Shown here: positions 2 to 29,051 of the stretch, piece after piece
How the letters are laid out: every line of letters starts with the position of its first letter
Numbering within the stretch: position 1 is the first letter of the stretch
Assembly: GCA_038999725.1 (NCBI GenBank)
Contig: JAWBWS010000003.1
Span: 29,464-93,463 of the forward strand
DNA length: 64,000 nucleotides
DNA from: Candidatus Aenigmatarchaeota archaeon
Lineage (GTDB): Archaea > Aenigmatarchaeota > Aenigmatarchaeia > CG10238-14 > SCSR01
Direction of reading: 5' to 3'
Notes under the pieces: generated by a model
What the model was told of the DNA's origin: nothing
Database searches by the model: none
The model's input: only the letters and a program-made list of their open reading frames with translations
Translations under genes and position numbers: made by a program

Positions 2-499
2 TTGAAAGAAAAAAATATATTAGGGAAGATGAAAAAAGTAAGAGAAATTATGAACACAAAGGTAATTTGCTTTGATTCTGAGCAAACTATATTTGAAGTT
101 GCTAAAGTACTTTCCGAGAAAAATATTTCTGGCGCCCCTGTGCTTGAAAATGATAAAATTGTGGGAATAGTAAGCACTTCAGATATAGTAAAATTCTTGA
201 AAACAGAATTGAAAATAGGGCCTGCATACGAGTTGCCGTTTCTGGGTTTGCTCTTTCTAGATTTGGTGAAAACTGGCAAGGATTACATCAAGCTGAAGAA
301 AGAAATAAAGAAAATCTCTAATATAAAAGTGAAAAATATCATGTCCAAAAAAGTTATTTCTATAGACCCTGAAGCAAGTGTTTTTGACGCAGCTAACTTG
401 ATGGAAAAGCATGATGTGAATAGATTACCAGTAGTGGAAAATGGAAAGTTGGTAGGAATTGTTGCAAGAGCTGATGTCATAAAAGCTATAATTGGTTAA
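2..499 (+). CDS. CBS-domain pair protein (possibly 5'-truncated by window edge)
   Basis: Two CBS-like segments with the hydrophobic-G-hydrophobic-hydrophobic signature (KIVGIVSTSDIV and KLVGIVARADVI), 165 aa ORF. Confidence 0.6.
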   Translation: MKEKNILGKMKKVREIMNTKVICFDSEQTIFEVAKVLSEKNISGAPVLENDKIVGIVSTSDIVKFLKTELKIGPAYELPFLGLLFLDLVKTGKDYIKLKKEIKKISNIKVKNIMSKKVISIDPEASVFDAANLMEKHDVNRLPVVENGKLVGIVARADVIKAIIG

Positions 500-1008
500 A
501 TTACACCCCAATACCGGTGTATATCTCTCGTAATTTCTACAAATTTTTCTGTTGGAACAATATACAATCCCACTTTTAAATAGAATTTTCCACCAGTTTG
601 TATGGCAGTTGCAATTTTTCTGCAATCCACTAATTTATAATTATACAGCTTCTCAACCTCTTCTATAAGGTCGGATTCTTCATAAACTTTTAATAGAGAC
701 TTTGACAATGTTTCTTCGTCTTTTGTAACTTTTTTCATAAAAGAGTTGGTTTTAAAATCTGGTGAGGAGAAAAGACAAGCAACCCATTCACTATTTTTGG
801 CTGCTCCATGTAGAAGTGTTGCCAAAACAATTTCTGACTCGATACTAAGTTTTTCATCAAAGATCTCAAGGTTGGTGTATAAACCCACAACATCGTTTAG
901 AGAAAGATTTTCATCCGCCCAAAACTCTTGGGAAAAACCTAAAATTTCTTCAATTGGATATTTTTTACTAAGTTGTTTTGTGTCTTGGGTAGCAAAATAT
1001 TCTACCAT
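496..1008 (-). CDS. hypothetical protein
   Basis: 170-aa ORF, no recognisable motif; sits beside the tRNA-Ser. Confidence 0.35.
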   Translation of the reverse strand: MVEYFATQDTKQLSKKYPIEEILGFSQEFWADENLSLNDVVGLYTNLEIFDEKLSIESEIVLATLLHGAAKNSEWVACLFSSPDFKTNSFMKKVTKDEETLSKSLLKVYEESDLIEEVEKLYNYKLVDCRKIATAIQTGGKFYLKVGLYIVPTEKFVEITRDIHRYWGVI

Positions 1009-1121
1009 TTAATTTGATATTTCTTCTTTAAACATTAAATGTTTTTTCCAGATAGATTCTTCAAAATATTTAGAGTTTTCTATGAGTATAGAAGAGAAAA
1101 AGATTTATAAAGATTTGATTG

Positions 1122-1205
1122 CGCCCAGGGTGGGATTTGAACCCACACGGTCTTTCGACCACCAGCTCTCCAGGCTGGCGCCATACCAGATTAGGCGACC
1201 TGGGC
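1122..1205 (-). tRNA. tRNA-Ser (anticodon GGA) with long variable arm
   Basis: The reverse complement folds as a cloverleaf: acceptor GCCCAGG/CCTGGGC, anticodon stem CCAGC/GCTGG with loop CTGGAGA, a long variable arm GGTCGAAAGACC, T-arm GTGGG-TTCAAAT-CCCAC, discriminator G. Confidence 0.85.
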
Positions 1206-1265
1206 AAATACATGAACCTTAAATAAATTTATTTAGACAGATGATTTAAAATTACCAAGCTTCTC

Positions 1266-1406
1266 TCATTCATCAACCAAAGCTTTAGGAGATTTTACAA
1301 AAATATGTTTACAATCTTTACATTCATAAGCTTGTGGATAACTAGCTTCAATCACCTCTACTCTGTTAGAGCCACACTTAGGGCATTTTTCAAGGCTAAT
1401 CTTCAT
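1266..1406 (-). CDS. small zinc-ribbon protein (46 aa)
   Basis: Unlisted ORF MKISLEKCPKCGSNRVEVIEASYPQAYECKDCKHIFVKSPKALVDE with CPxCG...CxDC; its start overlaps the stop of the upstream gene. Confidence 0.25.
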   Translation of the reverse strand: MKISLEKCPKCGSNRVEVIEASYPQAYECKDCKHIFVKSPKALVDE

Positions 1407-1890
1407 CTCTACACACCTCACAGAGATAGCTTCCATTAACCTTTTTCAAATAGTCAGACTGATTTTCACAATTTTCGCAAATATTCATGTCGAAATCTTC
1501 TTTTTCTTCAGAAATTATGGTTGGATTAAAATTTTTTGTAATTGTTATTTCAGAATTATGACCAACTTTAAGGAAATCGAAATTGAAGAGTTTGATGAAA
1601 TTTTCTGCCAATTTTTCATCTTTCGAGTACAAGAAATTAAAAACTTCTTTAATGTAGCAGTAAGGACAAATTGGTACTTCAACCATCATCCCACACCTCA
1701 TACATTTTTCTTTTTCGAAAGAAGATTCAAACAAATTTTTCAAATTTTCTGAAAATTTCTTGAAGTCGTCTGAAATTTCAAGACAAGAAAGCCATTTTTC
1801 AACAGAAGCTTCTAAGCAATTCACACAAATGAAATTGAAAATTGGTTCCAGACAAAATTTACATACTACTGTTTCTCTCACTTTGAACAC
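1396..1890 (-). CDS. cysteine-rich protein with three CxxC zinc-ribbon pairs
   Basis: CKFC..CVNC; CMRCG..CPYC; CENCEN..CEVC; 164 aa. Confidence 0.5.
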   Translation of the reverse strand: MFKVRETVVCKFCLEPIFNFICVNCLEASVEKWLSCLEISDDFKKFSENLKNLFESSFEKEKCMRCGMMVEVPICPYCYIKEVFNFLYSKDEKLAENFIKLFNFDFLKVGHNSEITITKNFNPTIISEEKEDFDMNICENCENQSDYLKKVNGSYLCEVCRDED

Positions 1891-1959
1891 CTTTTTATTG
1901 AAAAAGATAATTTGGATGATTATAAAAATCTTATGTAAATTTATTCGAGTCGAATTGTA

Positions 1960-2529
1960 TTGTTTTTAAAAATTTTCCTAGAAAAGAAAAATTTAAATAC
2001 AGGCAAATCGATTTATTTATCAGTGCTGAAGAAGAGAGAAAGAGAAGTTTTCATTCAACTTCTGGAAAACGCGAGGGTACCAGACAAACATATAGCCAAG
2101 CTACTTAACATAACCCAACCAACCGTCACAAGAATAAGACAAAGATTGGAGAAAATGGGATACATCAAGAAATACAAGCCCGTGGTTGATTTTCAGAAGT
2201 TGGGTATGAGTCTTGTAGCATTAACACTTTTCAGGATAGCCGATTTTTCAAAGATAGATGTAAAGGGCAAGATGCTTCCAGATTTAAGTAAAATGCCGCA
2301 AGTTTTTTTACTTGCCCAAGGTGAGGGCATGGGTAAAACTTCTGTGGTAGGCACAATCCACAAAAGTTTTTCTGATTTTGAGGAATGGATGGCAAGCTTG
2401 AGAAAAAAACATGGAAAATATATGGAAGATGTTGAACACTTCATTTTTTCAATCAACAAAATCCAGAAAGAATTTTCCTTGGAAGACGCTGTGATAGATA
2501 TTCTAAGGAGGGGTCAACTTGGAAAGTAG
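1960..2529 (+). CDS. Lrp/AsnC-family transcriptional regulator (HTH + RAM-like domain)
   Basis: HTH segment HIAKLLNITQPTVTRIRQRLEKMGYIKKYKPVVDFQKLG is typical of Lrp/AsnC; a C-terminal beta-alpha-beta-beta-alpha-beta-like region follows. Confidence 0.6.
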   Translation: MFLKIFLEKKNLNTGKSIYLSVLKKREREVFIQLLENARVPDKHIAKLLNITQPTVTRIRQRLEKMGYIKKYKPVVDFQKLGMSLVALTLFRIADFSKIDVKGKMLPDLSKMPQVFLLAQGEGMGKTSVVGTIHKSFSDFEEWMASLRKKHGKYMEDVEHFIFSINKIQKEFSLEDAVIDILRRGQLGK

Positions 2530-2929
2530 AAAAATTGCCGAAGAAAGCAAGGTGATGGAAGCAATAAAGGAGATACTGAGGAGGAGGCTTAAAGTCGAGT
2601 CACAAGAAGAGCTTGCCACTCTTGTTTTGAGAAAGTTGAAAAAAGAAGATAAGAGCTACACCTTGTCACCAATAAGGGTGAAGAGAATTGCTTTAAAAAT
2701 TCCAGAAATTGAAGTTAAGGCTAAGACGAAGAAAACTTTGAAATTGCCAAAAATAGAAAAATGCCCAATTTGTGAGAGTAAAATAAAGCCTATCAAGATA
2801 AAAAATTTAGCCAATCAAGAAATCACAATCGGCTACAAATGTAGTAGCTGTGGCTATCAGAGCGACTTAGAAGCTTTCATGCCAATGAAGTATGCCTTCC
2901 TTCTTAAATCAGCTAAACTAAAAGCTTAA
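2519..2929 (+). CDS. zinc-ribbon hypothetical protein
   Basis: CPICES...CSSCG near the C-terminus; overlaps the Lrp gene by 11 nt, so an operon is likely. Confidence 0.45.
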   Translation: MESRKIAEESKVMEAIKEILRRRLKVESQEELATLVLRKLKKEDKSYTLSPIRVKRIALKIPEIEVKAKTKKTLKLPKIEKCPICESKIKPIKIKNLANQEITIGYKCSSCGYQSDLEAFMPMKYAFLLKSAKLKA

Positions 2930-2954
2930 ATATAAGTAAGAATATCTTACTAAT

Positions 2955-3233
2955 ATGAAAAGAGAAGAAATATTAGAAATAACAAAAATAAGTTCAAAAG
3001 GTCAAATTGTTTTACCTAAGAATATAAGAAAAGAATTAAATATCAAAAAAGGTAGTTTGTTTGCCCTTACAAAAAAAGGTAAATTAATAATATTAAAGAA
3101 AATCGAAAAACCAATTTTGAAAGAAGACCTGATTGCTCTTAAGAATGTAGAAAAAGCTTGGAGAGAAATAGAAAGTGGAAAATTTAGAAAAGCTAGTAGA
3201 GAAGATTTCTTGAAAGAGTTGACCAAATGGTAA
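2955..3233 (+). CDS. AbrB/SpoVT (swapped-hairpin) family antitoxin
   Basis: SSKGQIVLPKNIRKELNIKKGSLF is the AbrB/MazE-type DNA-binding motif; 92 aa; overlaps the downstream toxin gene by 7 nt. Confidence 0.7.
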   Translation: MKREEILEITKISSKGQIVLPKNIRKELNIKKGSLFALTKKGKLIILKKIEKPILKEDLIALKNVEKAWREIESGKFRKASREDFLKELTKW

Positions 3234-3484
3234 TAAAAGAGGTAATTTGGACTCAAAAATTTGAGGATGAGTTCAAGAAAGTTAAAGATACTGCTATTAA
3301 AGAAAGGATTAAAAAACAAATTGAAAAAATTATTAAAAATCCTGATGTTGGCAAACCTTTGAGGTTCGAGTTAAAGGGGGAGAGAGCAGTTTACATTAAG
3401 TCCTACAGACTTATTTATTCTGCCATCGGAGATAAGTTATACCTTCTAAGATTTGAGCATAGAAAAAAAGTCTATAGAATTTGA
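3227..3484 (+). CDS. RelE/ParE-family type II toxin
   Basis: 85 aa, basic, with C-terminal YRLIYSAIGDKLYLLRFEHRKKVY typical of RelE/ParE; follows the antitoxin in the same orientation. Confidence 0.65.
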   Translation: MVIKEVIWTQKFEDEFKKVKDTAIKERIKKQIEKIIKNPDVGKPLRFELKGERAVYIKSYRLIYSAIGDKLYLLRFEHRKKVYRI

Positions 3485-3572
3485 ATAGGTTTGTCTATCG
3501 CTTATGTCGATGAAGTATATTTTCATTTTAAAGCAAAGATATAAATAGTTCGCGGAAACATAGTAGTAGCTG

Positions 3573-4175
3573 ATGAGTTACACTTTAGAGATAATTCATG
3601 ACCAAATAGAAAAGATATTATATCCAGAAAAATTTACGCACCACAAAAATCCTCCTCCTAAATTGATGCCCTCTCAGTTGAAAGTTTTGAGAGAATTTTA
3701 TAATCAGTGTAATGCTGATGGTCTTAGCCCAAAAACTACTTTGAATTATTTGAGACATCTTAGAACATTAGGTTTATGTGTAAAAAAGCCTTTTGAGAAG
3801 ATGACAAAAGATAATTTGGTTTATTTTCTGAATGAAAGACAGAGACCAGATTTTCTAAGGAAGTTGGGAGTAAGATTTCCTTTACTAAAAGAAAAGCAAG
3901 TTTCAGCTAGAACTATGAATGAAATTAAAGTTGTGTTGAAAAAGTTTTACAAGTGGTACTACAAGACAGATGGTTGGGGAGTTTATCCTGAAGTAGTTAG
4001 TTGGATTAAAACCCCTAGAAAATTGAATATTAGTCGAAAATTACCAGAAGAGTTGCTAACAAAAGAGGATATCAAAGCAATGGCTGATAAAGCTAGCAAT
4101 CCAAGAGATAGAGCATTAATAATGGTTTTGTATGAGTCAGATGTAGAGTTGGAGAGGTTGTTTCTCTTAAAATGA
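3573..4175 (+). pseudogene. tyrosine recombinase/integrase, 3'-truncated (N-terminal core-binding domain plus the first helix of the catalytic domain only)
   Basis: SAM-like N-domain (LKVLREFYNQCNADGLSPKTTLNYLRHLRTL). The ORF ends right after NPRDRALIMVLYESDVELERLFLLK, the first conserved Arg region of the catalytic domain. The R...HxxR...Y remainder is absent and the next gene starts 25 nt later. Confidence 0.6.
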
Positions 4176-4199
4176 AACATGAAATTTATTATGAAATTT

Positions 4200-7100
4200 T
4201 TACTTGGTCCATAACTTCTTATACCAAAGAATAAACATTATAACCCCTACAACTGAAACAAATATCACAGCAACTCCTGTTGGTGAAACTATAAATGTAA
4301 CAAGTCCTCTTAATATCCTCGTGCCAGTTGGTATCCATGGTGTTGGTGTTGTGGCAGGTGCTGGACAATCTGCTGGGCAGTTGATGTAATCTTCTCCAGA
4401 TTCACATACACCATTACCGCAAACTACTTTCTTTTCTGGTGGTTTAACTTCACAAGTTTGTTTTTCTATTGGTTTGTTTTTTGTTGTTCCACATTTGTTT
4501 AAATCAGTACAAATTCTTATTTGCGTTCCATTAACACATTCAGACCATTCAGTACAACTCCAATTTTCCTTACATTCTTCTAGCACTATAGGCGGCGCTC
4601 TCCCTCTACCTCCATATTGTAGCGTTGGAGTTGGTACCGGTGCTCCAAACAAACCAAAAATACTAAAGTGAGAAGTGTTAGCCCAGACATAATTATTTGT
4701 CGTGTCCACACCCCCATATGGTGGGTTGTAGGGAATCCAAGTTTTGGCTGTGTTATTATAGTAGTAAATTCTTAACGATTCTTCTATAATTCCTGCTGCT
4801 GTAACTTCAGCATCTGTGTAATAAATTTTAATTAGTGCCCATGATAAACTGCTAGTGAGATTGGGATCTACCTTAATTTCTATGTACTTGTTCAAAGCAG
4901 TCACACCAATATTAGCAGTTCCAGGGTTCTGAGTATATGAGACAATATTTACAGAGGCATTCGATATATTTTGGTTTGTCATTATTTCTAAACTTGTATT
5001 GGTAGTTTGAATTGCATTTATGATAGTTGTAACATTTGCAATTGCTGAAACTGAATTATTTGTATAGTTTCCAGTTGCTCCAACAATCAATGAAAGAGGT
5101 AAGCTATAGTTTCCAGCATTTGAAACTATATCCAAATTGCCATCAAAACTACCTGGGGTTGTACCAGAGAATGTAATTGTTATATTCGTTGAAAATCTTG
5201 GTGGTACATTAAAGCTATTTGGTAAAATAGAGATGTAGGGTGCGATTGATCCTAAAACAGTTATCGTTCCTCTCGCATTTGTATTTCCATAACTTTTAAT
5301 TGAAAGAGTTTGATTTGAGAAGCTACCCACATTTAAAGATACAAGATAAGATGTAGTAGACAAATTAATTAGTGGTGTTGAAAATACTGAAAAGTTTGTG
5401 AGACTTGAAGTAGAGTATTGTTTGGTATCGGTCTCCACATAATCAAATGTCACATTAACTGTATAATTCCCAGGCGGATTTATACCTGTGTTCCATTTGA
5501 CTTGGAAGGGAAGAACAGATACCTCGTTTATTTGCAAATCGTTCAAAACGATAATTGGGCTATCTGAAATAAATAAAGTTAAATTACCCATTACTAGTCT
5601 GTCTTCGGTGTTGTTAATAACTCCGGTGATTATAACATCTTCGTAGGCAGAGTAATTGGCTTTGTTGGTGGAGAGTGAAATAGTTATGGGCGCTTTTACA
5701 ACCTCAACAGTCACCCAGTAAAATCTAGGTTCTTCTATTAAAAGTTGGTGTGGAGGTTCACCTATCCACCATTTGAATGATGTGTAGACATCTCCATAAT
5801 ACAAATTGGGGATTGTGTTTTGTGGTACAGAAATTGTTAAATTAATTAGTTGTTTGTCACTTATATTTGAGAAAGCAGTAGCTGGAGTTATTGTAAGCCA
5901 ATTCCACACAGTATACCTCCGTTGAGAGATTATTAAATTTATCTGATCTTCACCAGCAGGTATATCATAACCTAAGACAACTACTGTCCAATTACCTGTT
6001 TTACCTCTAACCCCTGTCTGTAACCAAACCTCTTTACCATAAATTGGGTAACCTAAATAGAAACAACTATCCTCATAAGAGCAATAGGCCGATCCGGTAG
6101 ATGCAGCCAATTTGTTTTCTGGATCGAATAAATAAAGTCCTAATCCAGTAGTTATATTTTTCCAGCTAAGTTTTAATATAAGGTAATCCGAAATAGAGCC
6201 ATTAACGAAAAATGTGTAATAATTGTACTTTTTATCTTTGATTTCATCAGTTATCAATTGACTATGTTGCTCGACTAGTCCATAAGGTGTTAAATCGACA
6301 TCCATACTGGTATTAGGAAGTAAGTTCCAAAGTGTTAATTGAATAGTTTTTACTTCTCCTGGTTGAAGTATATGATACTCAGAACGTGGTAAAATAGATG
6401 CTTTTGGAAGTACTACATTTAGTGTAAAAGAAGCATTTTCTTCTGTCAGAGATGGAGCGTAAATTCCTGCAGTCCACGTACCATTAATTGGGTTGAAGAC
6501 ATAGATGCTTGACCATAACCAATCGTACATAGGAGAAGACTTTAATATCTTACCATCTGGACTAAAAAGGTATAATTCTAAAATAGGAATTTCCCCACCT
6601 CTAGGAGGATTTAAATCAACCTCAAGATAGTCAGCACCTTCAGGAACATTAAAGGAATAGAATTTCATTTCATGAGAAGTGATATTATCAGAAATATTAG
6701 CTTTATTAAGGTATAAACTCAGTCTTTGACTAACTCCAACTAAAACGGGAATAATTATATCGTCATTTACAATAATTCTTCCCTGATATTCGCCTTTACT
6801 ATCATTCGGTATATCTATTCCCATTGTTGGCCAATTATTTTCACTAAACCAAGGCCAATCTACAAACCCACTTTTCTCTAATCTTCCGAAAAATTCTTGA
6901 GTACCATTTACATACCAACCATATACTTCTCCTCTCCATTCTCCTACTACCGGACTTCGAATTGTTATTTCTTCATGAGTAACACCAAGACCCCATGAAG
7001 AGCATGTAACCAACTTTCCATCGGGATCATATAAACACAAATCCAAATCATTACTTGGATCATCCCAATCGATACTGATAGTAAACCCAATAATAGAAGA

Positions 7101-8978
7101 GTCTACATCAAAGGTATAATTATAATATTCATGATTTCCAATCTCCCCATTGAACAAACTAATATCAATAACTGATGAAAATGTTTCCTCAACTAAGCTC
7201 GTAACTTCGATGTTTGATACGTTAAATGTTTGTGTTTTACTACTTCCTGCTTCTACTATACCTATATTCCATGCTGAGGGCATAATCCATTTATTGTTCT
7301 TAGCAGCTTGGTAAGCCTTGTAAGCATCTATTCTACCACCACCTTGAACTGTTGGTTTTTGTTTAAGATCTTTGGCGGTATTCATTAATATGGCTTTAAC
7401 TTGTTCTGGTGTCAAATTGGGGTATGATTGTAGAATTAGTGCAACTACACCAGCTACATGTGGAGTCGCCATACTAGTTCCACTTGCCGAAGTATAATAC
7501 TCGCTTATAGGCCAACCCATGTCAGTATTATTTGCTCTTGCAGAAATTATCCATACACCTGGTGCAACAATGTCTGGCTTAATTCTTTCATCTGTAGTTG
7601 GACCTTCACTGCTAAACCATGCTATGTTATCAAAATTATCAGTAGCACCAACTGTTATGGCTTTCTTGGCACAACCAGGAGCTAAAATTGCTCTAACATC
7701 ATAAGAATTGCCAGCTGCAACAATTACATTAACACCTCTATCTACAGCAGAATCAACAGCTAAAGACATAGGATCTGAGCCATCACAGATAGGAACCCTC
7801 CCACCTAAACTCATACTTATTATTTTAGCTCCAGAATCAACAGCCCATTCTATACCTGCTATTATATCAGACTCAAAGCCATGTCCATAATCATCAAGAA
7901 CTTTTCCGTTTAATAATTGAACCCCTTCAGGGGCAACTCCTTTAAAAATATCTGCTTGATTATCCCAATCAACATCTAAAGCAATTGTAATGTTATTTTC
8001 ATTTTCCTCAATATCTTCTAACATTTGGTATGCTTCACTATAATAATAATTAGATATGAAATGCTCTCCAACAGAGGCGACGGCCTGGTCATAAATTGTG
8101 TTGAAATCACCGTCCTCATCTAAGTAAACAAGATAATTTGTTTCGCTATTAGTCACAAGAACATAATAATTCTTTACTTCTAGCCAATCAACCCACCAAC
8201 CAAAATTTAAAAGTAAGTCGATTCTACCTACATGATAAATACCATCGTTATCACTAGGTAGATTAGCTAAATTTAAAGATGAACAATTTTCAACTGTGCA
8301 AATAGTTGATGTGTCAACAACTCTCTTGGATCCATTGCCACTACCTGCTATTATAGCAGCAACATGTGTACCATGACCAAAATAGTCATTAGGATCTAAT
8401 TTACCATCAAATAATGTAAAATCTTTTTCAGCTACAATTTTTCCTTCTAATCCAGGATGATTTTTATCAATTCCTGTATCTAGTACAGCTACTTTAACTT
8501 CAGTTACAGATCTAGTTTCATTCCAAACTAATGGTGCGTTAATTAGTGGTGCACTCTTGAAAAGTTGAGGTGTTATATTAAATGCCTGATATTTTTTCAG
8601 AAGTAGTTCGTTCAAATCAAAATTTTCTTCAGAAAGTGCATATACTTTTTTATCAAGATAAACCTTTTTTACATTAGTAGAGTTTGATAAATTTAAAAGT
8701 ATTTCAAGAGAAACATTAGCTGCAAATGCGTTAATTAAATGATATTTATACTTTGGTTGAACACCTACCATATCTACTTTAGCAGATGGTTGCAAAATAA
8801 CAATGACCGGAACCTTCGATGGAATTTCATTTTGAATAAAATCAATAATGGAAGGGTCTACTCTCTTTGATGAAACTAACTCTTGTATCAGATGTTGGGA
8901 AGATATAGCAAAAACATTGTCGATAAAAAATAGAAAACAGAAAAATACTATCACACTTAATAACAACCCATTCTTCAT
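4200..8978 (-). CDS. secreted S8 subtilisin-like serine protease with a very large sequon-rich C-terminal extension, Cys-rich modules and a C-terminal TM anchor
   Basis: Signal peptide MKNGLLLSVIVFFCFLFFIDNVFA; catalytic triad motifs VAVLDTGID, HGTHVAAIIAG and SGTSMATPHVAGVVALI; more than forty N-x-S/T sequons; Cys-rich CGNGVCESGEDYINCPADC; C-terminal hydrophobic helix plus a YKKLWTK tail. Confidence 0.85.
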   Translation of the reverse strand: MKNGLLLSVIVFFCFLFFIDNVFAISSQHLIQELVSSKRVDPSIIDFIQNEIPSKVPVIVILQPSAKVDMVGVQPKYKYHLINAFAANVSLEILLNLSNSTNVKKVYLDKKVYALSEENFDLNELLLKKYQAFNITPQLFKSAPLINAPLVWNETRSVTEVKVAVLDTGIDKNHPGLEGKIVAEKDFTLFDGKLDPNDYFGHGTHVAAIIAGSGNGSKRVVDTSTICTVENCSSLNLANLPSDNDGIYHVGRIDLLLNFGWWVDWLEVKNYYVLVTNSETNYLVYLDEDGDFNTIYDQAVASVGEHFISNYYYSEAYQMLEDIEENENNITIALDVDWDNQADIFKGVAPEGVQLLNGKVLDDYGHGFESDIIAGIEWAVDSGAKIISMSLGGRVPICDGSDPMSLAVDSAVDRGVNVIVAAGNSYDVRAILAPGCAKKAITVGATDNFDNIAWFSSEGPTTDERIKPDIVAPGVWIISARANNTDMGWPISEYYTSASGTSMATPHVAGVVALILQSYPNLTPEQVKAILMNTAKDLKQKPTVQGGGRIDAYKAYQAAKNNKWIMPSAWNIGIVEAGSSKTQTFNVSNIEVTSLVEETFSSVIDISLFNGEIGNHEYYNYTFDVDSSIIGFTISIDWDDPSNDLDLCLYDPDGKLVTCSSWGLGVTHEEITIRSPVVGEWRGEVYGWYVNGTQEFFGRLEKSGFVDWPWFSENNWPTMGIDIPNDSKGEYQGRIIVNDDIIIPVLVGVSQRLSLYLNKANISDNITSHEMKFYSFNVPEGADYLEVDLNPPRGGEIPILELYLFSPDGKILKSSPMYDWLWSSIYVFNPINGTWTAGIYAPSLTEENASFTLNVVLPKASILPRSEYHILQPGEVKTIQLTLWNLLPNTSMDVDLTPYGLVEQHSQLITDEIKDKKYNYYTFFVNGSISDYLILKLSWKNITTGLGLYLFDPENKLAASTGSAYCSYEDSCFYLGYPIYGKEVWLQTGVRGKTGNWTVVVLGYDIPAGEDQINLIISQRRYTVWNWLTITPATAFSNISDKQLINLTISVPQNTIPNLYYGDVYTSFKWWIGEPPHQLLIEEPRFYWVTVEVVKAPITISLSTNKANYSAYEDVIITGVINNTEDRLVMGNLTLFISDSPIIVLNDLQINEVSVLPFQVKWNTGINPPGNYTVNVTFDYVETDTKQYSTSSLTNFSVFSTPLINLSTTSYLVSLNVGSFSNQTLSIKSYGNTNARGTITVLGSIAPYISILPNSFNVPPRFSTNITITFSGTTPGSFDGNLDIVSNAGNYSLPLSLIVGATGNYTNNSVSAIANVTTIINAIQTTNTSLEIMTNQNISNASVNIVSYTQNPGTANIGVTALNKYIEIKVDPNLTSSLSWALIKIYYTDAEVTAAGIIEESLRIYYYNNTAKTWIPYNPPYGGVDTTNNYVWANTSHFSIFGLFGAPVPTPTLQYGGRGRAPPIVLEECKENWSCTEWSECVNGTQIRICTDLNKCGTTKNKPIEKQTCEVKPPEKKVVCGNGVCESGEDYINCPADCPAPATTPTPWIPTGTRILRGLVTFIVSPTGVAVIFVSVVGVIMFILWYKKLWTK

Positions 8979-9125
8979 TTCACCACTTGAACTACTTAAT
9001 TTTTATTTAAGAGATTTAGAGATTTAAATTTTACCAATTTAATACTGCTGACGGCTTCGCCTAGTGATGCTTTGGGATTAATAAGTGTAATTGATAAAGT
9101 ATTTCCGAAAGCTGGGATTTGTAGC

Positions 9126-10397
9126 TCAAAACAGCATGAATTTCCTCTTAATTAAAATTAGGGCTAAAATTATTGCTAACAAGATTAAACCCACCACTAC
9201 TACTGGGTTTGATAAAGTATCGAGTATGATTTCTCTTGTGGACTTAATGGGAATTGTGGTTGTTGTGGTTGGGAGCGTGGTTGTTGTGGTTGGGAGCGTG
9301 GTTGTTGTGGTTGGGAGCGTGGTTGTTGTGGTTGGGAGCGTGGTTGTTGTTGGTATGTAGGGTGGTATGGTGGTTGTGGTAGTAGTTGGGGCAGGTGAAC
9401 TTCCAAACATGCCAAACAAGCTGAAGCTTGTCACATTAGCATATACAAAATTGTTGACTGTATCCACACATCCAAAAGTTGGGCATGGTAAAGCATTCCA
9501 ACTTGTTCCATTCCACTTGTACAATCTTAAAGTGCTTTCATCCAGTCCCGCAACTTCATCATGGGTATAGCTGACATTAATGATAACATAAGCCAAGTTA
9601 TTTCCCAGCTCGGGACTCACCCTTATGTCCAAGAATTTAACTGGATGTAGACCCGGAATTCCAGGTGTTATGTTGCCTGTGAATGTTGTCACATTCACAT
9701 TTACATCTGATACAGTAGCATTTGTAACTATTCCCAAACTTGTGTCAGTCTCAGCAGCTAGAAGGATAAGTGTGAATATATTTTCAAGTATTTCTTGAAT
9801 TGTTTTTGAATCCTTTCCTTTAAGTCCTTCTGGCTCTTCTGGAGGCAGGATTTCAATTGTTTTATTTTTGCTGAATTTGTCCCCATTGGCATAAACTGTT
9901 AAACTAATCTTATAGGTGGTTGGTGTTATTGGGACTTTCCACCTCACATTAAATCTTAAAGTGGCAGAAGCACTCCCATACCCGTAACCATAGCCATAGC
10001 CCCAATAGTATGGTGTGCCTTCCCAATACCCATACCCGTAACCATAGCCATAGCCCATTGGTGGAACAAATTCTGTTGTAACATTAATTCCTTGACAGTG
10101 AGTTGTTTCTCCATCACTTAACTCTATATTACAACTAATTCCTGTGCCAGCAATTGGCTCAATTTTTAGTGTAACATTAGCTATAGGAATTAACTCTCCC
10201 GCATTTGTGTTTATTTCTATTGGGAAGCTTATGGTTTCCCCTCCTCTTGCTTCTGAGGGGGATTTTATATCAATCACAAAAGCTGCAAGCGGTTTTGAAG
10301 AAAGAATCAGGAAAATAAGAATAGAAGAGATGAGGATAGAAAATATTCTCTTCTTAAAAAAATTCTTGTCAAGCTCGTAAGATTTTATAAACTTCAC
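9126..10397 (-). CDS. cell-surface protein with GY repeats, a (L/I)PTTTTT repeat linker and a C-terminal TM anchor
   Basis: N-terminal hydrophobic segment; GYGYGYGYGYWEGTPYYWGYGYGYGYG; a 70-aa domain homologous to the protease C-terminal domain (YANVTSFSLFGMFG vs WANTSHFSIFGLFGA); TLPTTTTT x4; TM plus KRKFMLF. Confidence 0.65.
   Translation of the reverse strand: MKFIKSYELDKNFFKKRIFSILISSILIFLILSSKPLAAFVIDIKSPSEARGGETISFPIEINTNAGELIPIANVTLKIEPIAGTGISCNIELSDGETTHCQGINVTTEFVPPMGYGYGYGYGYWEGTPYYWGYGYGYGYGSASATLRFNVRWKVPITPTTYKISLTVYANGDKFSKNKTIEILPPEEPEGLKGKDSKTIQEILENIFTLILLAAETDTSLGIVTNATVSDVNVNVTTFTGNITPGIPGLHPVKFLDIRVSPELGNNLAYVIINVSYTHDEVAGLDESTLRLYKWNGTSWNALPCPTFGCVDTVNNFVYANVTSFSLFGMFGSSPAPTTTTTTIPPYIPTTTTLPTTTTTLPTTTTTLPTTTTTLPTTTTTIPIKSTREIILDTLSNPVVVVGLILLAIILALILIKRKFMLF
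9256..9360. repeat. about 5 tandem copies of a 21-nt unit (gtggttgttgtggttgggagc) encoding the LPTTTTT linker on the minus strand
   Basis: Direct reading of the sequence; it lies inside CDS 9126..10397. Confidence 0.85.
9975..10056. repeat. duplicated 26-nt block (catacccgtaaccatagccatagccc) encoding GYGYGYGY
   Basis: Two copies about 52 nt apart inside CDS 9126..10397. Confidence 0.7.
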
Positions 10398-10417
10398 CTC
10401 TTCTACTTAATATTTTT

Positions 10418-11656
10418 TTGAAGAACTACCTTAAATACTTTATTGGAAGAATGATAGCCCAAGCCTTTATTACAACCTCAGCCGTTTTTCTTGGAATGGG
10501 TCTAAACTATTTGTTCCATTTCTTCATGACAAGGCTTTTGAGTCCAAGCTTATATGGAGAGATTTCAATTTTAATCGGGTTTTTAACCATCATATTAGTA
10601 CCCACAGGTAGTATACAAACTGTTTTAACAAGAGAAATTGCAAAGTTAGAGAAAAGGGGGAATGAAAGAGTTATAGTCGGTTTGATAAGGAGATATTTGA
10701 GAAGCGCTTTTCTTGTAGGTTTAACTATTGCTTTGGTTTTATTCTCTTCTTCCTATATGATTGCCAAGATTTTCAAGGACGACCAACTCATTTCATCTAT
10801 TCAGTTACTGTCTCTTGGCATTCCATTCCTGTTTTTACTTCCTATATTCAAGGCATATTACCAAGGAAGGGAGAAGGTTTTTACTCTCTCAGGAATTTTG
10901 GCTGTTGAACCTTTGATAAAATTGGTCTTTGGTGTAGGCCTGGTTTTGATTGGTTTTGGATTATCTGGAGCAACACTTTCCCTAATCGCTGGTCCCATCA
11001 TTTTGGTTTTCCTTCTTCTTCCAAGAACAATTAAAATGACAAGTTTCCCCAACTATTCCATCAAATTGAAAAAATCCTTTTTCCTCATTCTTCTCACTTC
11101 AATTTCCTTAATGATTTTCTTTTATCTTGATTTGTTCTTTGTGAGATATTATCTTGGTTCAGAGCAAGCAGGCTATTACAATGTGGCTTCAATAACTTCT
11201 AAAGTTTTGTCTTACGCAACTGGTGGAGTTGTTTTGGTTTTTCTTCCAAAATCTTCCAAGCTATCCATTAAAAAGGAGAGGGGAAAAATTAAAACTTTGT
11301 TGCTTAAGTCAATCGCATTTATTACCCCAATCTTCATAGTTTTTGTGCTCTTCCCAAAGGAAATCATCTCAATTTTCTACACAGAAAAATATCTTTTTGC
11401 CTTAGGTTCCTTTACAATCCTAACCTTTGGGATGTTCATCTTTTCAATTTTCCAAATCCTTCTCTCCTTCTTTTGGTCTCAAAATTCCGAAAGGTTTCCA
11501 TTGGTTCTTTCCATTACAGCAACCTTAATTGATTTCCTACTTTTGAATTATTTCATTCCAATTAAAGGAATTGAAGGAGCAGCCATTGCAACCACACTCT
11601 CTTCCCTGGTTTTTCTCCTTCCCTCAATCTTTGTTGTTAGGGGTATGCTGATTTAA
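10418..11656 (+). CDS. polysaccharide/oligosaccharide flippase (MOP/Wzx-like), multi-pass membrane protein
   Basis: 412 aa with about 12 hydrophobic helices; its size and topology fit Wzx/MATE-like flippases; sits in a glycosyltransferase context. Confidence 0.55.
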   Translation: MKNYLKYFIGRMIAQAFITTSAVFLGMGLNYLFHFFMTRLLSPSLYGEISILIGFLTIILVPTGSIQTVLTREIAKLEKRGNERVIVGLIRRYLRSAFLVGLTIALVLFSSSYMIAKIFKDDQLISSIQLLSLGIPFLFLLPIFKAYYQGREKVFTLSGILAVEPLIKLVFGVGLVLIGFGLSGATLSLIAGPIILVFLLLPRTIKMTSFPNYSIKLKKSFFLILLTSISLMIFFYLDLFFVRYYLGSEQAGYYNVASITSKVLSYATGGVVLVFLPKSSKLSIKKERGKIKTLLLKSIAFITPIFIVFVLFPKEIISIFYTEKYLFALGSFTILTFGMFIFSIFQILLSFFWSQNSERFPLVLSITATLIDFLLLNYFIPIKGIEGAAIATTLSSLVFLLPSIFVVRGMLI

Positions 11657-13097
11657 AGAAGTAGATGTTGCCTTTCAAATTTACCAAATTTTCATTTTGG
11701 CATTTTACTGGGGAATAAACCAAAGAAATGTTGTTTTCCACCAAAAAGCTTGTGTTGGTGCAGTTCTGCTTAAAAAATTTGTAGGCATTATCCACAAGCT
11801 CAAGATATTTTTCATCTGGACCAAAAGGCATCACAGAGTAAACTCTTCTTTCAGCTATTGTTGCAAAAGCTCTTGCTTTCCATGGATCTAGCAGAACTAT
11901 CGTATCTTCTCTCGTATTTTCCTTAATCCATAGAAAGTTTTCATAATCTTCATCGTCAATCAAATAATAGTAAGGAGTTTTCAAGTTTCTTTCAATTGCA
12001 AGGAAAGAGGTTGCAACCAGGGAAATTAAAAGCAAAGCTGAACCGAAATTCTTGAACGGTTTTTCCATTTTTAGGAGTTTGGTGTAGCCAAAGCTTGCTA
12101 TTATTGACATGAGCAAGAACAAGGGAATGTAAGTCCTTTGGTAAGGGATCAACCAGTTCAAGTTTAGCCTGACGAAAAGGAAGATGTTGAGGGTTAAAGT
12201 TAAAGAAGTGAGAAGCAAGGCCCAAATCTCTTTGCTTTTTGTTTTTGCTAGAAAATAAAATCCTAAAATGAAAGATCCTGTCGGCAAGAAGCCATAAAGA
12301 GATGGGATTTCCCTCAGGTAGAACCAAAAGTTGAACTGAACCGCTTTTATTCCTTTTGTTTGAATCTCTGGGATGTAGTTTGGCAAGGAGAACAAAATCG
12401 AAGCTATTAAAACGGATAAAATTTCTTTTGCTTTTTGCTTGTTTTTTAAATTGAGCAAGAGGTAAAATCCAAGGATTGTTAATAAAACCATTGCTGTCGG
12501 TGGATGTGTATAAAGGATGAAGGTTGTTATGGCGAATAAAGCTAAATGGTTGTAGATGGGTTTGAGGTTTGTGAGTTCAAAAGCAAAGAGAAGAGCCAGG
12601 GGGATGAAGATCAAACTTAAATTTATTGGAACCAAAAACACAGGCCCACCTATTGTTACATTACTTGGAACCAAAGCTATCAATAAAGCTGAAATCAAAG
12701 CCTCCTTTTTGCCAAAAATTTTTGAAGTGAAATAAAAAACCGAAAGAATTGATAGAAAGTGGAAAAGAATTGGGAGGAAAACCCATTGTTTTACACTTAG
12801 GTTAAAAAATTTTTGGATGAAAGCTAAAGTTAAGTGCCAACCTCTTTCCAAACCTAATTCAAATGGCTTGCCAGAATACCAATCTATTTTTTGGTTTGAG
12901 GCTATCATTTTTGCCACAGAAATGTGAAACCATTCGTCTACATGCAAAGGGTAAGGGTAGTTCAAGTGGGGGTAAAAGGTTAGGAAAGAGGCTAAGAAAA
13001 GGATGAAAATCAAGCAAGCTATTTCCTTATTTTCAATTTTCTCTCTTCTCTTAGATATTCTATTATTAGGCATGCTACACCAACAACCAATAGCCAA
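11637..13097 (-). CDS. GT-C fold membrane glycosyltransferase-like protein (PMT/ArnT-like), putative
   Basis: Multi-TM protein with an acidic DE-type motif (HVDEWFH) in the first extracytoplasmic loop region, plus a C-terminal soluble domain. Confidence 0.4.
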   Translation of the reverse strand: MAIGCWCSMPNNRISKRREKIENKEIACLIFILFLASFLTFYPHLNYPYPLHVDEWFHISVAKMIASNQKIDWYSGKPFELGLERGWHLTLAFIQKFFNLSVKQWVFLPILFHFLSILSVFYFTSKIFGKKEALISALLIALVPSNVTIGGPVFLVPINLSLIFIPLALLFAFELTNLKPIYNHLALFAITTFILYTHPPTAMVLLTILGFYLLLNLKNKQKAKEILSVLIASILFSLPNYIPEIQTKGIKAVQFNFWFYLREIPSLYGFLPTGSFILGFYFLAKTKSKEIWALLLTSLTLTLNIFLFVRLNLNWLIPYQRTYIPLFLLMSIIASFGYTKLLKMEKPFKNFGSALLLISLVATSFLAIERNLKTPYYYLIDDEDYENFLWIKENTREDTIVLLDPWKARAFATIAERRVYSVMPFGPDEKYLELVDNAYKFFKQNCTNTSFLVENNISLVYSPVKCQNENLVNLKGNIYFFKSAYP

Positions 13098-25521: not shown

Positions 25522-26375
25522 TTCCTCAACCCATCATAATATCTTAAAATCTTCAAACGATAGAAGATTGCAGCAGTATCCAAAACAATCCTCATCACAT
25601 CCCTTACCTTAACTCTACTACCAATCCTTTGAAAGTGTAATTCAACAGGAGCTTCAACAATTCTGAATCCTCTGTGGTTAGCGTTGACGAGCAACTCCAA
25701 GTCAAAAGCATATTTCTTGCACAAAACTCTTGGGAAAACTTCTTTCAAGACCTTATATTTAAAGAGTTTTAAGCCAGCTTGTGTATCTCTTACACTCAAA
25801 TTAAACAAAAATTTTGTTATTAATTGATAACCGTAGCTTAAAATCCTTCTATGTAAAGGATAATCAATTTTTGACAAAGGATGTCTTTTCGAGCCGACAA
25901 CAACATCTGCACCATACTTCTTCATGAAATCAATAAATAAAGGGATTTGTTTAGGATGCAAATCTAAATCAGCATCAATAAAAGTAATGAGTTTTCCGGA
26001 ACAAAAATTGAACCCATATTTTAAGGCAGACCCCTTGCCTCCATTTTCTTTCCTAATAACTCTTACCCTTCTATCTCCTCTAGCAGCTTTTATTGCTTCA
26101 TCGTAAGTGTTATCAGAAGAGCCATCATCAATCACAATTATTTCATAGTCCAATCCAGAAGCATCAAGCACTTTCTCTATTTCTCTTATACTCTTGAATA
26201 TAATCCTACCTTCATTCCAAGCTGGAACTATTACAGATAGTTCTTTCATTTTCACTCTCTCCTTAAATTTAAGTAAGAAAAACAATAAAAAATAATTTCC
26301 ATCCTTGCTACTCTTGCAGCAAGACAAGCGACTTTTGTATTGAAAGAAAATAAAGCTTTTGTCAAGAGGCTTCAA
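25518..26375 (-). CDS. GT2 dolichyl/polyprenyl-phosphate sugar synthase-like glycosyltransferase (DPM1/AglJ/GtrB-like); the true start is probably the internal Met at MKELSVIVP
   Basis: LSVIVPAWNEGRII...EIIVIDDGSSDNT...KGSALKYGF is the signature of Dol-P-sugar synthases. Confidence 0.7.
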   Translation of the reverse strand: MKPLDKSFIFFQYKSRLSCCKSSKDGNYFLLFFLLKFKERVKMKELSVIVPAWNEGRIIFKSIREIEKVLDASGLDYEIIVIDDGSSDNTYDEAIKAARGDRRVRVIRKENGGKGSALKYGFNFCSGKLITFIDADLDLHPKQIPLFIDFMKKYGADVVVGSKRHPLSKIDYPLHRRILSYGYQLITKFLFNLSVRDTQAGLKLFKYKVLKEVFPRVLCKKYAFDLELLVNANHRGFRIVEAPVELHFQRIGSRVKVRDVMRIVLDTAAIFYRLKILRYYDGLRK

Positions 26376-26380
26376 ACAAG

Positions 26381-27760
26381 TTATGCCAGAAACTGCTCCT
26401 CATATTTCTTCAAATACTCCACACTTTTCTTCACATCAACAAAAAGCTTCTCCACATAAACAACATGCTCTTTCTCTATTCTTTCAGCTTTTTTCTCTTT
26501 CGCAACTTCAAAGGCAGGAGCCAACAATTGAATTGCATACCTCAAGCTAGTTTTACTACCAATTTCAGTTAGATAATCCAAAGCTTCCTCACTAATCTTA
26601 ATCTTCTCAGATTTTGCTCTTATCTCCAGAATCTTCCTAATTTCCTCTTTCTCGTAGGGCTTTGTGTTTATTATCAGCAACCTGTCAAGCAAATCCAAAG
26701 GCATGCCATGAGCAGCTTTAATGTCAGTTCCCCTTATTGTTGCAAACCCCCTGTTTGTTGCAAAAATTATTATCGGAGCCAATTCCTGCTCCAAAGCCCT
26801 ATTCAAGAAAGCAAAAGTTTCTATGTCGAGCATGCTACATTCGTCAATGAAAACAACCCCTGGTATAAGCTCACATTTACCTTCCTGGACCAAAGTTTTT
26901 ATGTATTCATCAACCTCCTTCCTAACTTCAGGCTCAATTTCTTTTGACTCCTTTCCCCCAAAGAACAAGCTGAAGATATCGCTTCCAGCTCGTGAGCTGG
27001 CCACATCCAAAGCATGCAGAGTCACAGGATAAACAAACTCTTTCTCTTTCAACACTTTCCCCTTTGGCACAGGCACGGGCTTAACTGTTGTTAGATCAAC
27101 TTTCTTCTCCTTAGCAGCTTCTTCACTTATACCAACCTTAACTATTCTGCCACCATCCACATCTATGTTCACAACATCCCCTGTTTCTACACCTTGTTGA
27201 ATCAATTGAATTGCAAAATTTTGGTCCATGGTTAATTTCTTGCTTTCATCTTTGGTTGCAATTTTTATTGTTGCCCCAACTGGGATTTGCTGATAAGGAT
27301 TGTAGGGATGTTGAGCTTTTTCTATCGAAATTTCTTTAACTTCGCCCTCATATATCTTCCTCATCTCATGAATTCTTGCAGCTATGGCCTTTCTCAATGT
27401 TTGTGTGAGAAATTCGGTTTTCTTGATATCTGTGGAAAAAATTTCACTTGCCGCCAAGTGAACAAATGGAACATCTCTCCCCAATTCCCTTGCTATACCG
27501 CTTCCAAGAGCAGTCTTTCCTGTTCCAGGTGGTCCGGCCAACAAAATTGCTCTTCCAGCAAACTTACCTTCTTTTATCAGCCTAACAATCAAGCCAGCAG
27601 CCTCTCTTGCTTCTATTTGGCCAACCATTCCATCTGCTACTGGCTTTGCCTTCAAACCATCAAGACCCAAGCCTTGGATATGTGAATGAGCAGCAACCCT
27701 TTCCCACTCGCGCAGAGATTCGGGGATTTCCCTAATCTCTGCCATAACCTCACCTTTCAA
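26381..27760 (-). CDS. RuvB-like AAA+ ATPase, TIP49 (RuvBL/Pontin-Reptin) homolog
   Basis: GLGLD...GMVGQ..AREAAG...AGRAILLAGPPGTGKTALGSGIARELG..VPF; 459 aa with an insertion domain between Walker A and Walker B. Confidence 0.7.
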   Translation of the reverse strand: MKGEVMAEIREIPESLREWERVAAHSHIQGLGLDGLKAKPVADGMVGQIEAREAAGLIVRLIKEGKFAGRAILLAGPPGTGKTALGSGIARELGRDVPFVHLAASEIFSTDIKKTEFLTQTLRKAIAARIHEMRKIYEGEVKEISIEKAQHPYNPYQQIPVGATIKIATKDESKKLTMDQNFAIQLIQQGVETGDVVNIDVDGGRIVKVGISEEAAKEKKVDLTTVKPVPVPKGKVLKEKEFVYPVTLHALDVASSRAGSDIFSLFFGGKESKEIEPEVRKEVDEYIKTLVQEGKCELIPGVVFIDECSMLDIETFAFLNRALEQELAPIIIFATNRGFATIRGTDIKAAHGMPLDLLDRLLIINTKPYEKEEIRKILEIRAKSEKIKISEEALDYLTEIGSKTSLRYAIQLLAPAFEVAKEKKAERIEKEHVVYVEKLFVDVKKSVEYLKKYEEQFLA

Positions 27761-28370
27761 TCTCTATTTTTAGCACACCATCTTTAAATTTTTTACTTAT
27801 GCTTACATTCTTTGGAATCGGAATCAGTTTGAAATAAGCCTTATCGCCAGCAAAAGCCTTCACTTCTATACTCTGCTCCAATCTCTTAACCTCTATATCT
27901 TCCTCACTTTTAACATCAGGCAGTTTTATAAGTATTATCTGTTTGTTTCCTATGGTTTGAACTTCTGACTCAGGCTCTTCTGTAACTTTTGGCACTTTAA
28001 CTTCCTTCTCCTCTTCTTCAACCTCTTCTACAGCAGGCCTAACGCCAAGCCTTCTTTTTAGTTCTGGTTCAAGTTTTTTGTATTCACCAGAAGTCTTTAT
28101 TTCAATTTTTGGTTTCATTCCTCTACCACTGTGAACGGTTATGCTAATGCCCCCGCCCCTAATCCCAGGCTTTATCTTGAAGCTTGGTATCTTGAAAAAA
28201 TCAAACCCGAACATCTTGTCTATCTCTTTAAGCTCTTTATCTATATCATCAAAAATGCTCTCAAAAGGAGCCTCTTCTTCAATCTCCCACCCACAATAAG
28301 GGCAAAAATTCCAATCTTCTTTTATTTTTTTACCACACTTGGGACAAACCTTTTTTTCAAACATAGACAA
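27750..28370 (-). CDS. zinc-ribbon plus Hsp20/alpha-crystallin-like domain protein
   Basis: N-terminal CPKCG...CPYCG; C-terminal LIKLPDVKSEEDIEVKRLEQSIEVKAFAGDKAYFKLIPIPKNVSISKKFKDGVLKIEIER resembles an ACD core. Confidence 0.45.
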   Translation of the reverse strand: MSMFEKKVCPKCGKKIKEDWNFCPYCGWEIEEEAPFESIFDDIDKELKEIDKMFGFDFFKIPSFKIKPGIRGGGISITVHSGRGMKPKIEIKTSGEYKKLEPELKRRLGVRPAVEEVEEEEKEVKVPKVTEEPESEVQTIGNKQIILIKLPDVKSEEDIEVKRLEQSIEVKAFAGDKAYFKLIPIPKNVSISKKFKDGVLKIEIER

Positions 28371-28484
28371 CCATCCAATTGTGTTTAAACTTGAAATATT
28401 TTTGTTTACAAGATATAAATTTCTTTTACATTCAAAACAATTTTCATTTAAATACTTGAAAATAAAAATTTAATTGTGGAAAAA

Positions 28485-28640
28485 ATGGGTAAGAAACCTT
28501 TTGGTGGATATTCGATTTGCTTTAAAGGAAGGAAGGAAACCCTTGAACAAGTATTTGGTACAGCTCCTCTGACCCCAAGTGCGATGACGAAAAAGCTTTG
28601 GGCTTTTGTGAAAGCTAAAAAACTGGCAAAGAAAGAATAG
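28485..28640 (+). CDS. small basic ORF (51 aa), hypothetical
   Basis: Unlisted ORF MGKKPFGGYSICFKGRKETLEQVFGTAPLTPSAMTKKLWAFVKAKKLAKKE in an otherwise empty intergenic gap. Confidence 0.2.
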   Translation: MGKKPFGGYSICFKGRKETLEQVFGTAPLTPSAMTKKLWAFVKAKKLAKKE

Positions 28641-28688
28641 AGTCGAAGAGAAGTTAAAAATTCTTTTGTTTGTGCTTAGCCAAAATTA

Positions 28689-29021: not shown

Positions 29022-29051
29022 AATTTTATTTTTTGTTTTTATTCTAAAAAA

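Follow-up and report, generated by a model that had tools for sequence, protein, structure and literature searches.

Probable leftovers of small integrative elements at the 3′ end of a conserved zinc-ribbon gene in an Aenigmatarchaeota genome

Gene content of the tRNA-Ser(GGA) region

The 64-kb window analysed here (the term refers to the whole stretch of DNA) stems from a metagenome-assembled genome (MAG) of Candidatus Aenigmatarchaeota (DPANN) and carries, near its left end, a tRNA gene, a toxin–antitoxin (TA) pair and a truncated tyrosine integrase gene, which a first-pass annotation had taken for a decayed integrative element. All features it listed, namely the tRNA-Ser, three Cys-rich open reading frames (ORFs), a regulator, the TA pair and an integrase reduced to its N-terminal domain, were recovered in the positions it gave. 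Its view of the integrase pseudogene and the TA pair as a fixed, eroding element remnant likewise held up: with high confidence, we take both the broken integrase and the TA pair for remains of small mobile elements. The predicted site of their insertion, however, is the end of a zinc-ribbon gene, here referred to as Zn136, and not the tRNA.

The tRNA-Ser(GGA) gene (1121–1205, minus strand; called by ARAGORN, Rfam score 58.9 bits) is followed by two overlapping Cys-rich ORFs on the same strand, zn56 (1266–1436) and cys164 (1396–1890). On the plus strand, these are succeeded by a winged helix-turn-helix (HTH) regulator (1960–2529) and by Zn136 (2519–2929), downstream of which lie the TA pair and the integrase gene. 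The regulator had been assigned to the Lrp/AsnC family; a winged-HTH domain was indeed detected (HTH_24, 3.6e-8), but its likeness to LrpA is confined to the N-terminal part. As its relatives measure 165–168 aa, its true start probably lies downstream of 1960.

Comparison loci (numbered with the prefix L) were retrieved by scanning species-representative genomes and JGI metagenomes with a 33-nt tRNA fragment as probe, and further related MAG contigs by a homolog search with Zn136 followed by look-ups of their genomic context. The latter search returned 324 homologs, the best 120 of which share 63–100% identity at lengths of 120–179 aa. Zn136 is a conserved Aenigmatarchaeota gene and the predicted integration target.

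Collinearity of the tRNA–Zn136 block in related genomes

In L020 (GCA_039000425.1), positions 8638–10392 correspond to window 1122–2911 in a single high-scoring segment pair (HSP) of 1806 nt, and the same interval is collinear, with no indel, in L022, L026, L028 and L030. L027 and L029 align as far as their contigs reach (from window 1661 and 1562, respectively), and L016 is collinear over the tRNA on both sides. The collinear HSPs with relatives stop at 2911. The gene order in L020 and L021 (GCA_044343505.1) reads tRNA-Ser(GGA), zn43, a 164-aa ORF, the HTH regulator, Zn136, TIP49, a zinc ribbon and PCNA. Relative to zn56, cys164, the regulator and Zn136, the tRNA keeps its position in L020, L022, L026, L028 and L030. 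Homologs of zn56 and cys164 occupy the equivalent place in L016 (68% and 65% aa identity), L020/L021, L022, L028 and L030, with 67–78% nucleotide identity to relatives, and the HTH regulator does so in L020–L023 and L026–L030.

Because 1122–2911 is collinear in related genomes, the Zn-ribbon ORFs and the regulator, initially regarded as cargo-like, are core genes; together with the tRNA-Ser and Zn136 they form part of the core chromosome. The outcome that the first-pass annotation had itself named as refuting its reading, an unchanged gene order with no indel in relatives, thus applies to 1206–2875. The TA cassette is missing from all relatives examined.

These data bear directly on the possibility that 1206–4199 is an island integrated into tRNA-Ser(GGA), with the Zn-ribbon ORFs, the regulator and the TA pair as cargo and the integrase at its far end. 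tRNA, TA pair and integrase do lie within 3 kb of each other, and in two unrelated loci from other metagenome lineages, an integrase of the same broad family comes after a tRNA-Ser(GGA) gene that is 93–94% identical: in L007 (38–1104), an intact 310-aa integrase lies 50 nt past the 3′ end of the tRNA, and in L013 (321–551) a decayed N-terminal integrase remnant takes that position. From this arrangement it follows that tRNA-Ser(GGA) serves as an integration site in other lineages, though not in the window. Here, blastn-short comparison of 1081–1260 with the whole window revealed no repeat of the tRNA from which att sites might have been deduced (best matches 9–11 nt, the longest to the tRNA body being 11 nt), and the proposed island would extend on the 5′ side of the tRNA, where the integrase starts at a distance of 2.4 kb; the classical order, with the integrase usually on the 3′ side, occurs solely in the unrelated L007 and L013. 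Since, in addition, the interval up to 2911 is collinear without indel in five of the relatives, Zn136 is a conserved gene of the phylum and the attachment core of an orthologous element lies within Zn136 (see below), an island of this kind is highly improbable. The tRNA-Ser most plausibly represents a bystander rather than the attachment site of the element in the window.

Among relatives, the gene that flanks the 3′ end of the tRNA is variable as well. It is a 170-aa ORF without family match in the window (496–1121), a different 168-aa ORF in L005 (1–577) and an HD-domain gene in L020 (7550–8636); in L016 (555–1554), ~1 kb without similarity is followed by the CBS gene of the window. A search among GTDB genomes for relatives with the 170-aa tRNA-flanking protein returned none.

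A complete element in relatives and the predicted attachment site

L031 and L032 hold a 99%-identical integrase on contigs of 9.3 and 8.8 kb, respectively. In L032, the 19-nt core ATGAAGTATATTTTCATTT is present at 108–126, within the last codons of Zn136, and again at 8528–8546; in L031, the second copy maps to 8407–8425. The complete element thus comprises ~8.4 kb between 19-bp direct repeats. Past the first core of L032, Zn136 terminates in the gene end MKYIFILKQRYK (followed by a stop codon) and the integrase follows, whereas the reading frame past the second core, MKYIFIWKEKLSA (again with a stop codon), constitutes the displaced native Zn136 end. Besides the integrase, the element encodes a membrane protein, small ORFs, an AbrB-like protein, an N6/N4 DNA methyltransferase and a GmrSD nuclease; the 8.4 kb yielded neither a capsid gene nor any further hallmark of a virus. 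Such a layout is typical of site-specific elements that insert into the terminal part (3′ end) of a gene, which is restored in the process.

In the window, the exact core is found once (3510–3528, plus strand) and agrees at all positions with the attL/attR core of the complete L031/L032 element. It opens an orphaned element-type Zn136 end (MKYIFILKQRYK with its stop codon; 3510–3548, plus strand), separated from the integrase by a 24-nt spacer. The body of Zn136 in the window is not joined to this core; it continues past 2893 into AFLLKSAKLKA and a stop codon, and then into the TA pair, these last 12 codons (2894–2929) being unique to this genome. A degenerate version of the core, matching at 14 of 19 positions, is located at 2885–2903 (plus strand). 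Across the comparison loci, a KQRYK-type Zn136 end, of which the window holds an orphan at 3510–3548, accompanies an integrase or a stub thereof wherever it was seen (L005, L006, L022, L027, L029, L030), and loci devoid of it (L019, L020, L024) possess other Zn136 ends. Identity to the window amounts to 88–98% in the att block and 83–93% in the integrase, as opposed to 67–82% in the flanking core genes; the value of 93% refers to window 3741–4181 compared with the pseudogene of L022. The predicted attachment site is the 19-bp core within the 3′ end of Zn136, and the integration point originally assumed, the tRNA, was not upheld.

Two att-block patterns and the integrase produced no matches in scans of viral contigs. 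A scan of 2850–4300 for bacterial promoters and terminators was uninformative.

The integrase gene as a pseudogene

The annotated ORF at 3573–4175 (200 aa) corresponds to NCBI protein QW040_02625 on a 119,775-bp contig and matches SAM-like N-domain models only (PF13495, 2.9e-8; PF02899, 2.5e-5). Its abrupt stop, correctly noticed in the first-pass annotation, is real (4173–4175) but results from a frameshift, i.e. a 1-nt deletion at ~4138/4139 relative to orthologs. The +1 frame reads YESGCRVGEVVSLKMKH, a typical Arg-I box, which is the sole catalytic box in the window and out of frame. With nothing to be found beyond codon 203, the R...K...HxxR...Y catalytic domain is incomplete, and reading through the frameshift recovers the Arg-I box without restoring the catalytic domain downstream. 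Corrected for the frameshift, codons 1–203 are identical in 186 of 203 aa to the intact integrase of L027, in an alignment with a 1-nt gap. The pseudogene (3573–4181, plus strand) covers codons 1–203 of 432 and is cut off after ...SLKMKH. DNA homology of L022 (90%) and L027 (85%) with the window extends from 3504 to exactly 4181 and then ceases; similarity to integrases ends at 4180/4181. What had been taken for the start of the next gene 25 nt later is instead the end of a convergent S8 protease gene, the stop of which lies at 4200.

When three full-length homologs were compared with the window by tblastn, the C-terminal half of the integrase gave just one 18-aa match at 1372–1425 (E 0.3–2); this was judged a chance hit, as it is antisense to a real Zn-ribbon ORF and lacks flanking similarity. 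Repeats of the 3′ end of the gene (4051–4260) in the window did not exceed chance-level matches of ≤14 nt. Comparison with its orthologs identifies the integrase gene of the window as a pseudogene and a probable relic of a small integrative element.

The intact state is exemplified by L027, where a 432-aa integrase starts 24 nt past Zn136 and comprises a SAM-like domain, a catalytic domain (PF00589, 5.4e-19) and a C-terminal zinc ribbon; the motifs GCRVGE, GKTG, HLFRHSR and YVHL supply all of the R, K, HxxR and Y residues. An intact integrase likewise lies 24 nt downstream of Zn136 in L031–L033. L022/L023 hold a full-length pseudogene with many stops and frameshifts, and the remnants shorten from 203 codons in the window to ~56 codons in L030 and 8–10 codons in L005, L006 and L029. 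No trace of an integrase, together with other Zn136 ends, was observed in L019, L020/L021 and L024/L025. The integrase family as a whole numbers 1634 proteins at E ≤1e-30.

That integrated copies remain intact is decisive for a further explanation, an SSV-type ('suicidal') integrase, in which attP resides inside the gene and the 200-aa ORF would be int(N), with int(C) at the other end of the element. The window's break codon recurs, after all, in homolog P0002 (42% identical, from a GC-rich organism; L002 282–899 and 720–1592), whose integrase similarity is lost at this very codon (IKIKH) and which is fused, over ~9 nt of shared sequence, to an amino-acid permease truncated mid-gene; homolog P0009 diverges 4 aa after this codon. 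Yet the window contains no int(C), its DNA at 4100–4260 is unrepeated there, the integrated ortholog is intact in L027 and L031–L033, and the att core is situated upstream of the start codon and not within the gene. The intact integrase in the integrated state therefore rules out an SSV-type split, to which we attach next to no probability.

Nor does the gene appear to be a long-standing resident of the chromosome past Zn136, i.e. a domesticated or Xer-like gene, inherited vertically and lost piecemeal with no site-specific integration. This notion would account for the same position in many relatives and for the graded series of remnants. It is at odds with the 19-bp repeats 8.4 kb apart and the displaced native end at the second copy in L031/L032, with the empty site of L020/L021, and with the pair L027 and L029, which are 99.6% identical over 1320 nt and part at integrase codon 9, the gene being present in one and absent from the other. 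Archaeal XerA identity was ruled out by a score of 47.1 bits to NCBIfam model NF040815 (cutoff 220). Moreover, the integrases resemble each other more than the core genes do, even where two pseudogenes are compared. Since a vertically inherited neutral pseudogene should not exceed constrained core genes in likeness, we infer that the element entered these lineages after their divergence, at the same site. A resident gene is accordingly judged very unlikely, if slightly less so than the tRNA island or the SSV-type split.

L029 (1400–1794) and L006 (5703–5813) have in common not only the integrase stub but also a further 124 nt downstream (85% identical), although their Zn136 genes agree to only ~70%. 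Divergent hosts thus appear to swap the DNA that lies right of the core even where no integrase is present.

A toxin–antitoxin cassette at the same core

Between the body of Zn136 and the orphaned att block, the window harbors an AbrB/MazE antitoxin (2955–3233, plus strand; PF04014, 8.8e-10, 38.8 bits at a cutoff of 24.7) and a RelE/ParE toxin (3227–3484, plus strand; PF05016, 5.4e-11, 43.4 bits at a cutoff of 23). The antitoxin precedes the toxin and the two genes overlap by 7 nt. Family-level domain matches classify the pair as a type II module with predicted toxin and antitoxin activity; exact-protein look-ups of either partner found nothing on record.

Substitute Zn136 end, antitoxin and toxin make up an insertion of ~625 nt (2894–3500, plus strand), bordered by 18-nt direct repeats. 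The left copy, TTCATGCCAATGAAGTAT, occupies 2876–2893 (plus strand) and the right copy 3501–3518 (plus strand); the repeat shows one mismatch to the degenerate pattern and has two matches in the window, against 0.06 expected. In L005, L006, L022, L027, L029 and L030, the Zn136 body passes directly into the block found at window 3504. As the TA pair is absent from relatives and the Zn136 body is joined to this block there, the cassette is best explained as a separate insertion at the same core as that used by the integrase element. Its possible origins include a second, tandem element of which it is what remains, a cassette devoid of an integrase, and an insertion facilitated by homology. The DNA on the left of the second core of the window showed no significant homology to the right arm of the L032 element, the observed score being reached in 211 of 500 shuffles.

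A bolder and tentative proposal, which we consider possible but improbable, is that 2894–3500 represents a minimal integrase-less integrative cassette, equipped with an imitated Zn136 end plus its own att-core copy, that was perhaps inserted in trans by the integrase of the resident element. The 3′ end of Zn136 would then be a cassette-accepting hot spot in Aenigmatarchaeota, where repeated integration and erosion might seed larger lineage-specific islands such as the 22-kb block to the right of the integrase.

The lineage-specific block between Zn136 and TIP49

This block (4182–26372) stands in place of the remainder of the element and its attR. It begins with the gene for the S8 protease (1592 aa; 4200–8978, minus strand), convergent to the integrase, and includes a glycosylation cluster of ~17 kb, for which Pfam indicates a flippase, five GT2 and two GT4 glycosyltransferases, a nucleotidyl (NTP) transferase, a methyltransferase and a PMT-like protein, and which also holds a 1336-aa ORF without Pfam match. 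The right-hand core flank is formed by a gene for a TIP49/RuvB-like ATPase (26381–27760, minus strand; Pfam).

The Zn136–TIP49 gap lacks this block in L020/L021, L019, L024/L025 and L005. In L020, the counterpart of window 26373–28364 (10391–12383) abuts that of the tRNA–Zn136 interval (8638–10392) to form an empty site, and in L020/L021 the ends of the convergent genes Zn136 and TIP49 overlap. Elsewhere, the gap contains a PNP_UDP_1 gene (L019, L024, L025) or a 176-aa membrane ORF (L005). Given that Zn136 abuts TIP49 in L020/L021, the real insertion of the window is ~2894–26372, between these two convergent core genes.

It is tempting to regard all of 2894–26372 as one large element with the TA pair, the integrase, the S8 protease and the glycosylation cluster as its cargo, which has lost the C-terminus of its integrase and its attR. 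L020/L021 lack the entire 23.5 kb between these two genes, and glycosylation clusters are often strain-specific. Homology to L022 and L027, however, breaks off at 4181, midway through the catalytic domain and at a distance of 19 nt from the convergent protease stop codon, as expected for a deletion or replacement junction; the complete element measures only 8.4 kb and carries different cargo; and the genes in 4200–26375 run in the direction of TIP49, with the sole exception of the flippase gene (10418–11656, plus strand). A repeat is present at neither boundary of 4182–26372, and searches for breakpoint repeats at 3450–3700, 26200–26500 and 28300–28500 detected none. A single large element is thus unlikely, though the least unlikely of the alternatives to small elements in Zn136. 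We read the junction at 4181 as a putative replacement or deletion that removed the remainder of the element along with attR.

Proposed sequence of events

Combining these data, we propose that small elements insert into the end of Zn136 as follows. An intact element such as that of L031/L032 (~8.4 kb, with a 432-aa tyrosine integrase ending in a zinc ribbon, a methyltransferase, a GmrSD-type nuclease and small ORFs) would recombine via the 19-bp core in the last Zn136 codons. In doing so, it would provide a replacement gene end, MKYIFILKQRYK plus stop codon, with the integrase 24 nt on, and move the native end to the far junction, while its integrase would stay intact after integration. In the window, the 1-nt deletion in the Arg-I box would first have inactivated the element. 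Next, everything past codon 203, including attR, may have been lost and replaced by the 22-kb block of protease and glycosylation genes. The 625-nt TA cassette, equipped with its own Zn136-like end, would have inserted at the same core and pushed the old attL 625 nt downstream. The empty site, the att repeats of the relatives, the orthologous intact genes and pseudogenes at this site and the two lesions are direct observations, whereas the order of events, the catalysis of recombination at the core by the integrase and the horizontal spread of the element are what we infer from them.

Several points weigh against this scenario. The window contains neither attR nor a second exact copy of the core, and for this reason the original extent of the element cannot be demonstrated here. 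No circular or excised form of the element was observed. The 10-codon stubs in L005, L006 and L029 have clustered end points and were considered as an attB-like identity block or as scars of excision; they do not represent products of precise excision, which, as attR of L032 shows, would bring back the native end. Selection on the intact gene (L027) may account for part of the higher identity of the integrase. Finally, the comparison loci are mostly metagenome contigs or MAGs, in which assembly errors are possible; the key junctions recur across independent samples (L022/L023, L031/L032/L033, and L001 in two samples).

Independent short-read assemblies break within the tRNA and at the att block, with L003 ending at window 1135, L004 ending at 1146 and L001 starting at 3465. 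Several contigs among L026, L028 and L031–L033 begin or stop 60–170 nt from the 19-nt core. Such breaks fit co-occurring related strains that share these sequences and differ beyond them.

Relation to known elements

Archaeal elements that integrate at the 3′ end of a protein-coding gene have been described before, and the Zn136 element is a further case. Among 68 thaumarchaeal elements, 14 reside in the 3′-distal part of protein-coding genes; one of their targets encodes a conserved Zn-finger protein, a new stop codon comes with the element and tandem integrations occur (PMC6563490). The Zn136 element resembles them in its tyrosine integrase, its short direct att repeats, the stop or gene end supplied by the element, and the comparison of occupied with empty sites. 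It differs in its host (Aenigmatarchaeota), target (Zn136), 19-bp core and cargo (N6/N4 methylase and GmrSD), and it is preserved in the window solely as a relic. In Aenigmarchaeota MAGs, an integrase beside restriction-modification genes has been noted before (PMC8407114).

With regard to the integrase itself, the best annotated matches to the intact ortholog are integrases of archaeal viruses (Geoglobus acetivorans pleomorphic virus 1, ThalV2 and Methanomicrobiales Caudoviricetes vir524), which show the same domain order and 34–38% identity over 74–90% of the length. This identity is low, and the 8.4-kb element differs from these viruses in that it has no capsid or hallmark genes found. XerA, XerC and XerD (PDB 4a8e, 5hxy and 1a0p) share its fold family and the set of catalytic motifs, Pyrococcus XerA (4a8e) being the best match among solved structures (2.1e-16); unlike these, the integrase possesses an extra N-terminal region, a C-terminal zinc ribbon, att repeats and a patchy presence in relatives.

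In pNOB8-type (type II) archaeal integrases, reportedly described by She et al. in 2004 (cited in PMC6563490), the gene stays intact upon integration. Similarly, the Zn136 integrase lies beside attL and is a complete ORF when integrated (L027, L031–L033), but its likeness to the pNOB8 type does not go beyond what tyrosine recombinases generally have in common, and it targets a site other than a tRNA. The TA pair, for its part, follows other RelE/ParE and AbrB/MazE modules in placing the antitoxin first with a 7-nt overlap, and departs from them as a 625-nt cassette with 18-nt repeats at its borders that sits within the 3′ end of a gene and brings a substitute end for it.

Knowledge of the mobile elements in DPANN archaea is scarce, and the locus together with its relatives defines one family of integrative elements in Aenigmatarchaeota by its target gene, 19-bp core, intact integrase and defence-gene cargo (methylase and GmrSD nuclease), with decay stages at one site. 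Current concepts remain unchanged by this result. For genome scans, it advises caution: adjacency of a tRNA, a TA pair and an integrase need not amount to a tRNA island, and the true site emerged only from the comparison of related genomes. The locus is, moreover, a variable hot spot flanked by two core genes, which in the window holds a large surface-glycosylation block.

Additional features of the right-hand block and its flank

Within the minus-strand ORF at 9126–10397, a perfect 21-nt tandem repeat (GTGGTTGTTGTGGTTGGGAGC) is present in 4.5 copies (9256–9350). GC skew is strong over this array, in which the Logan contig L001 ends.

The S8 protease (4200–4270) and the unrelated 176-aa membrane protein of L005 (1602–1680) both end in a hydrophobic helix followed by YKKLW(R)TK, and both are convergent to an integrase remnant. 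This shared end may be a lineage-specific C-terminal anchor motif.

Around TIP49, finally, two blocks change places: in the window (26381–29049), TIP49 and a zinc ribbon (block A) are followed by a small ORF and a 110-aa gene (block B), whereas the order is B–A in L005 and L019, and in L020 the 110-aa gene is found elsewhere.

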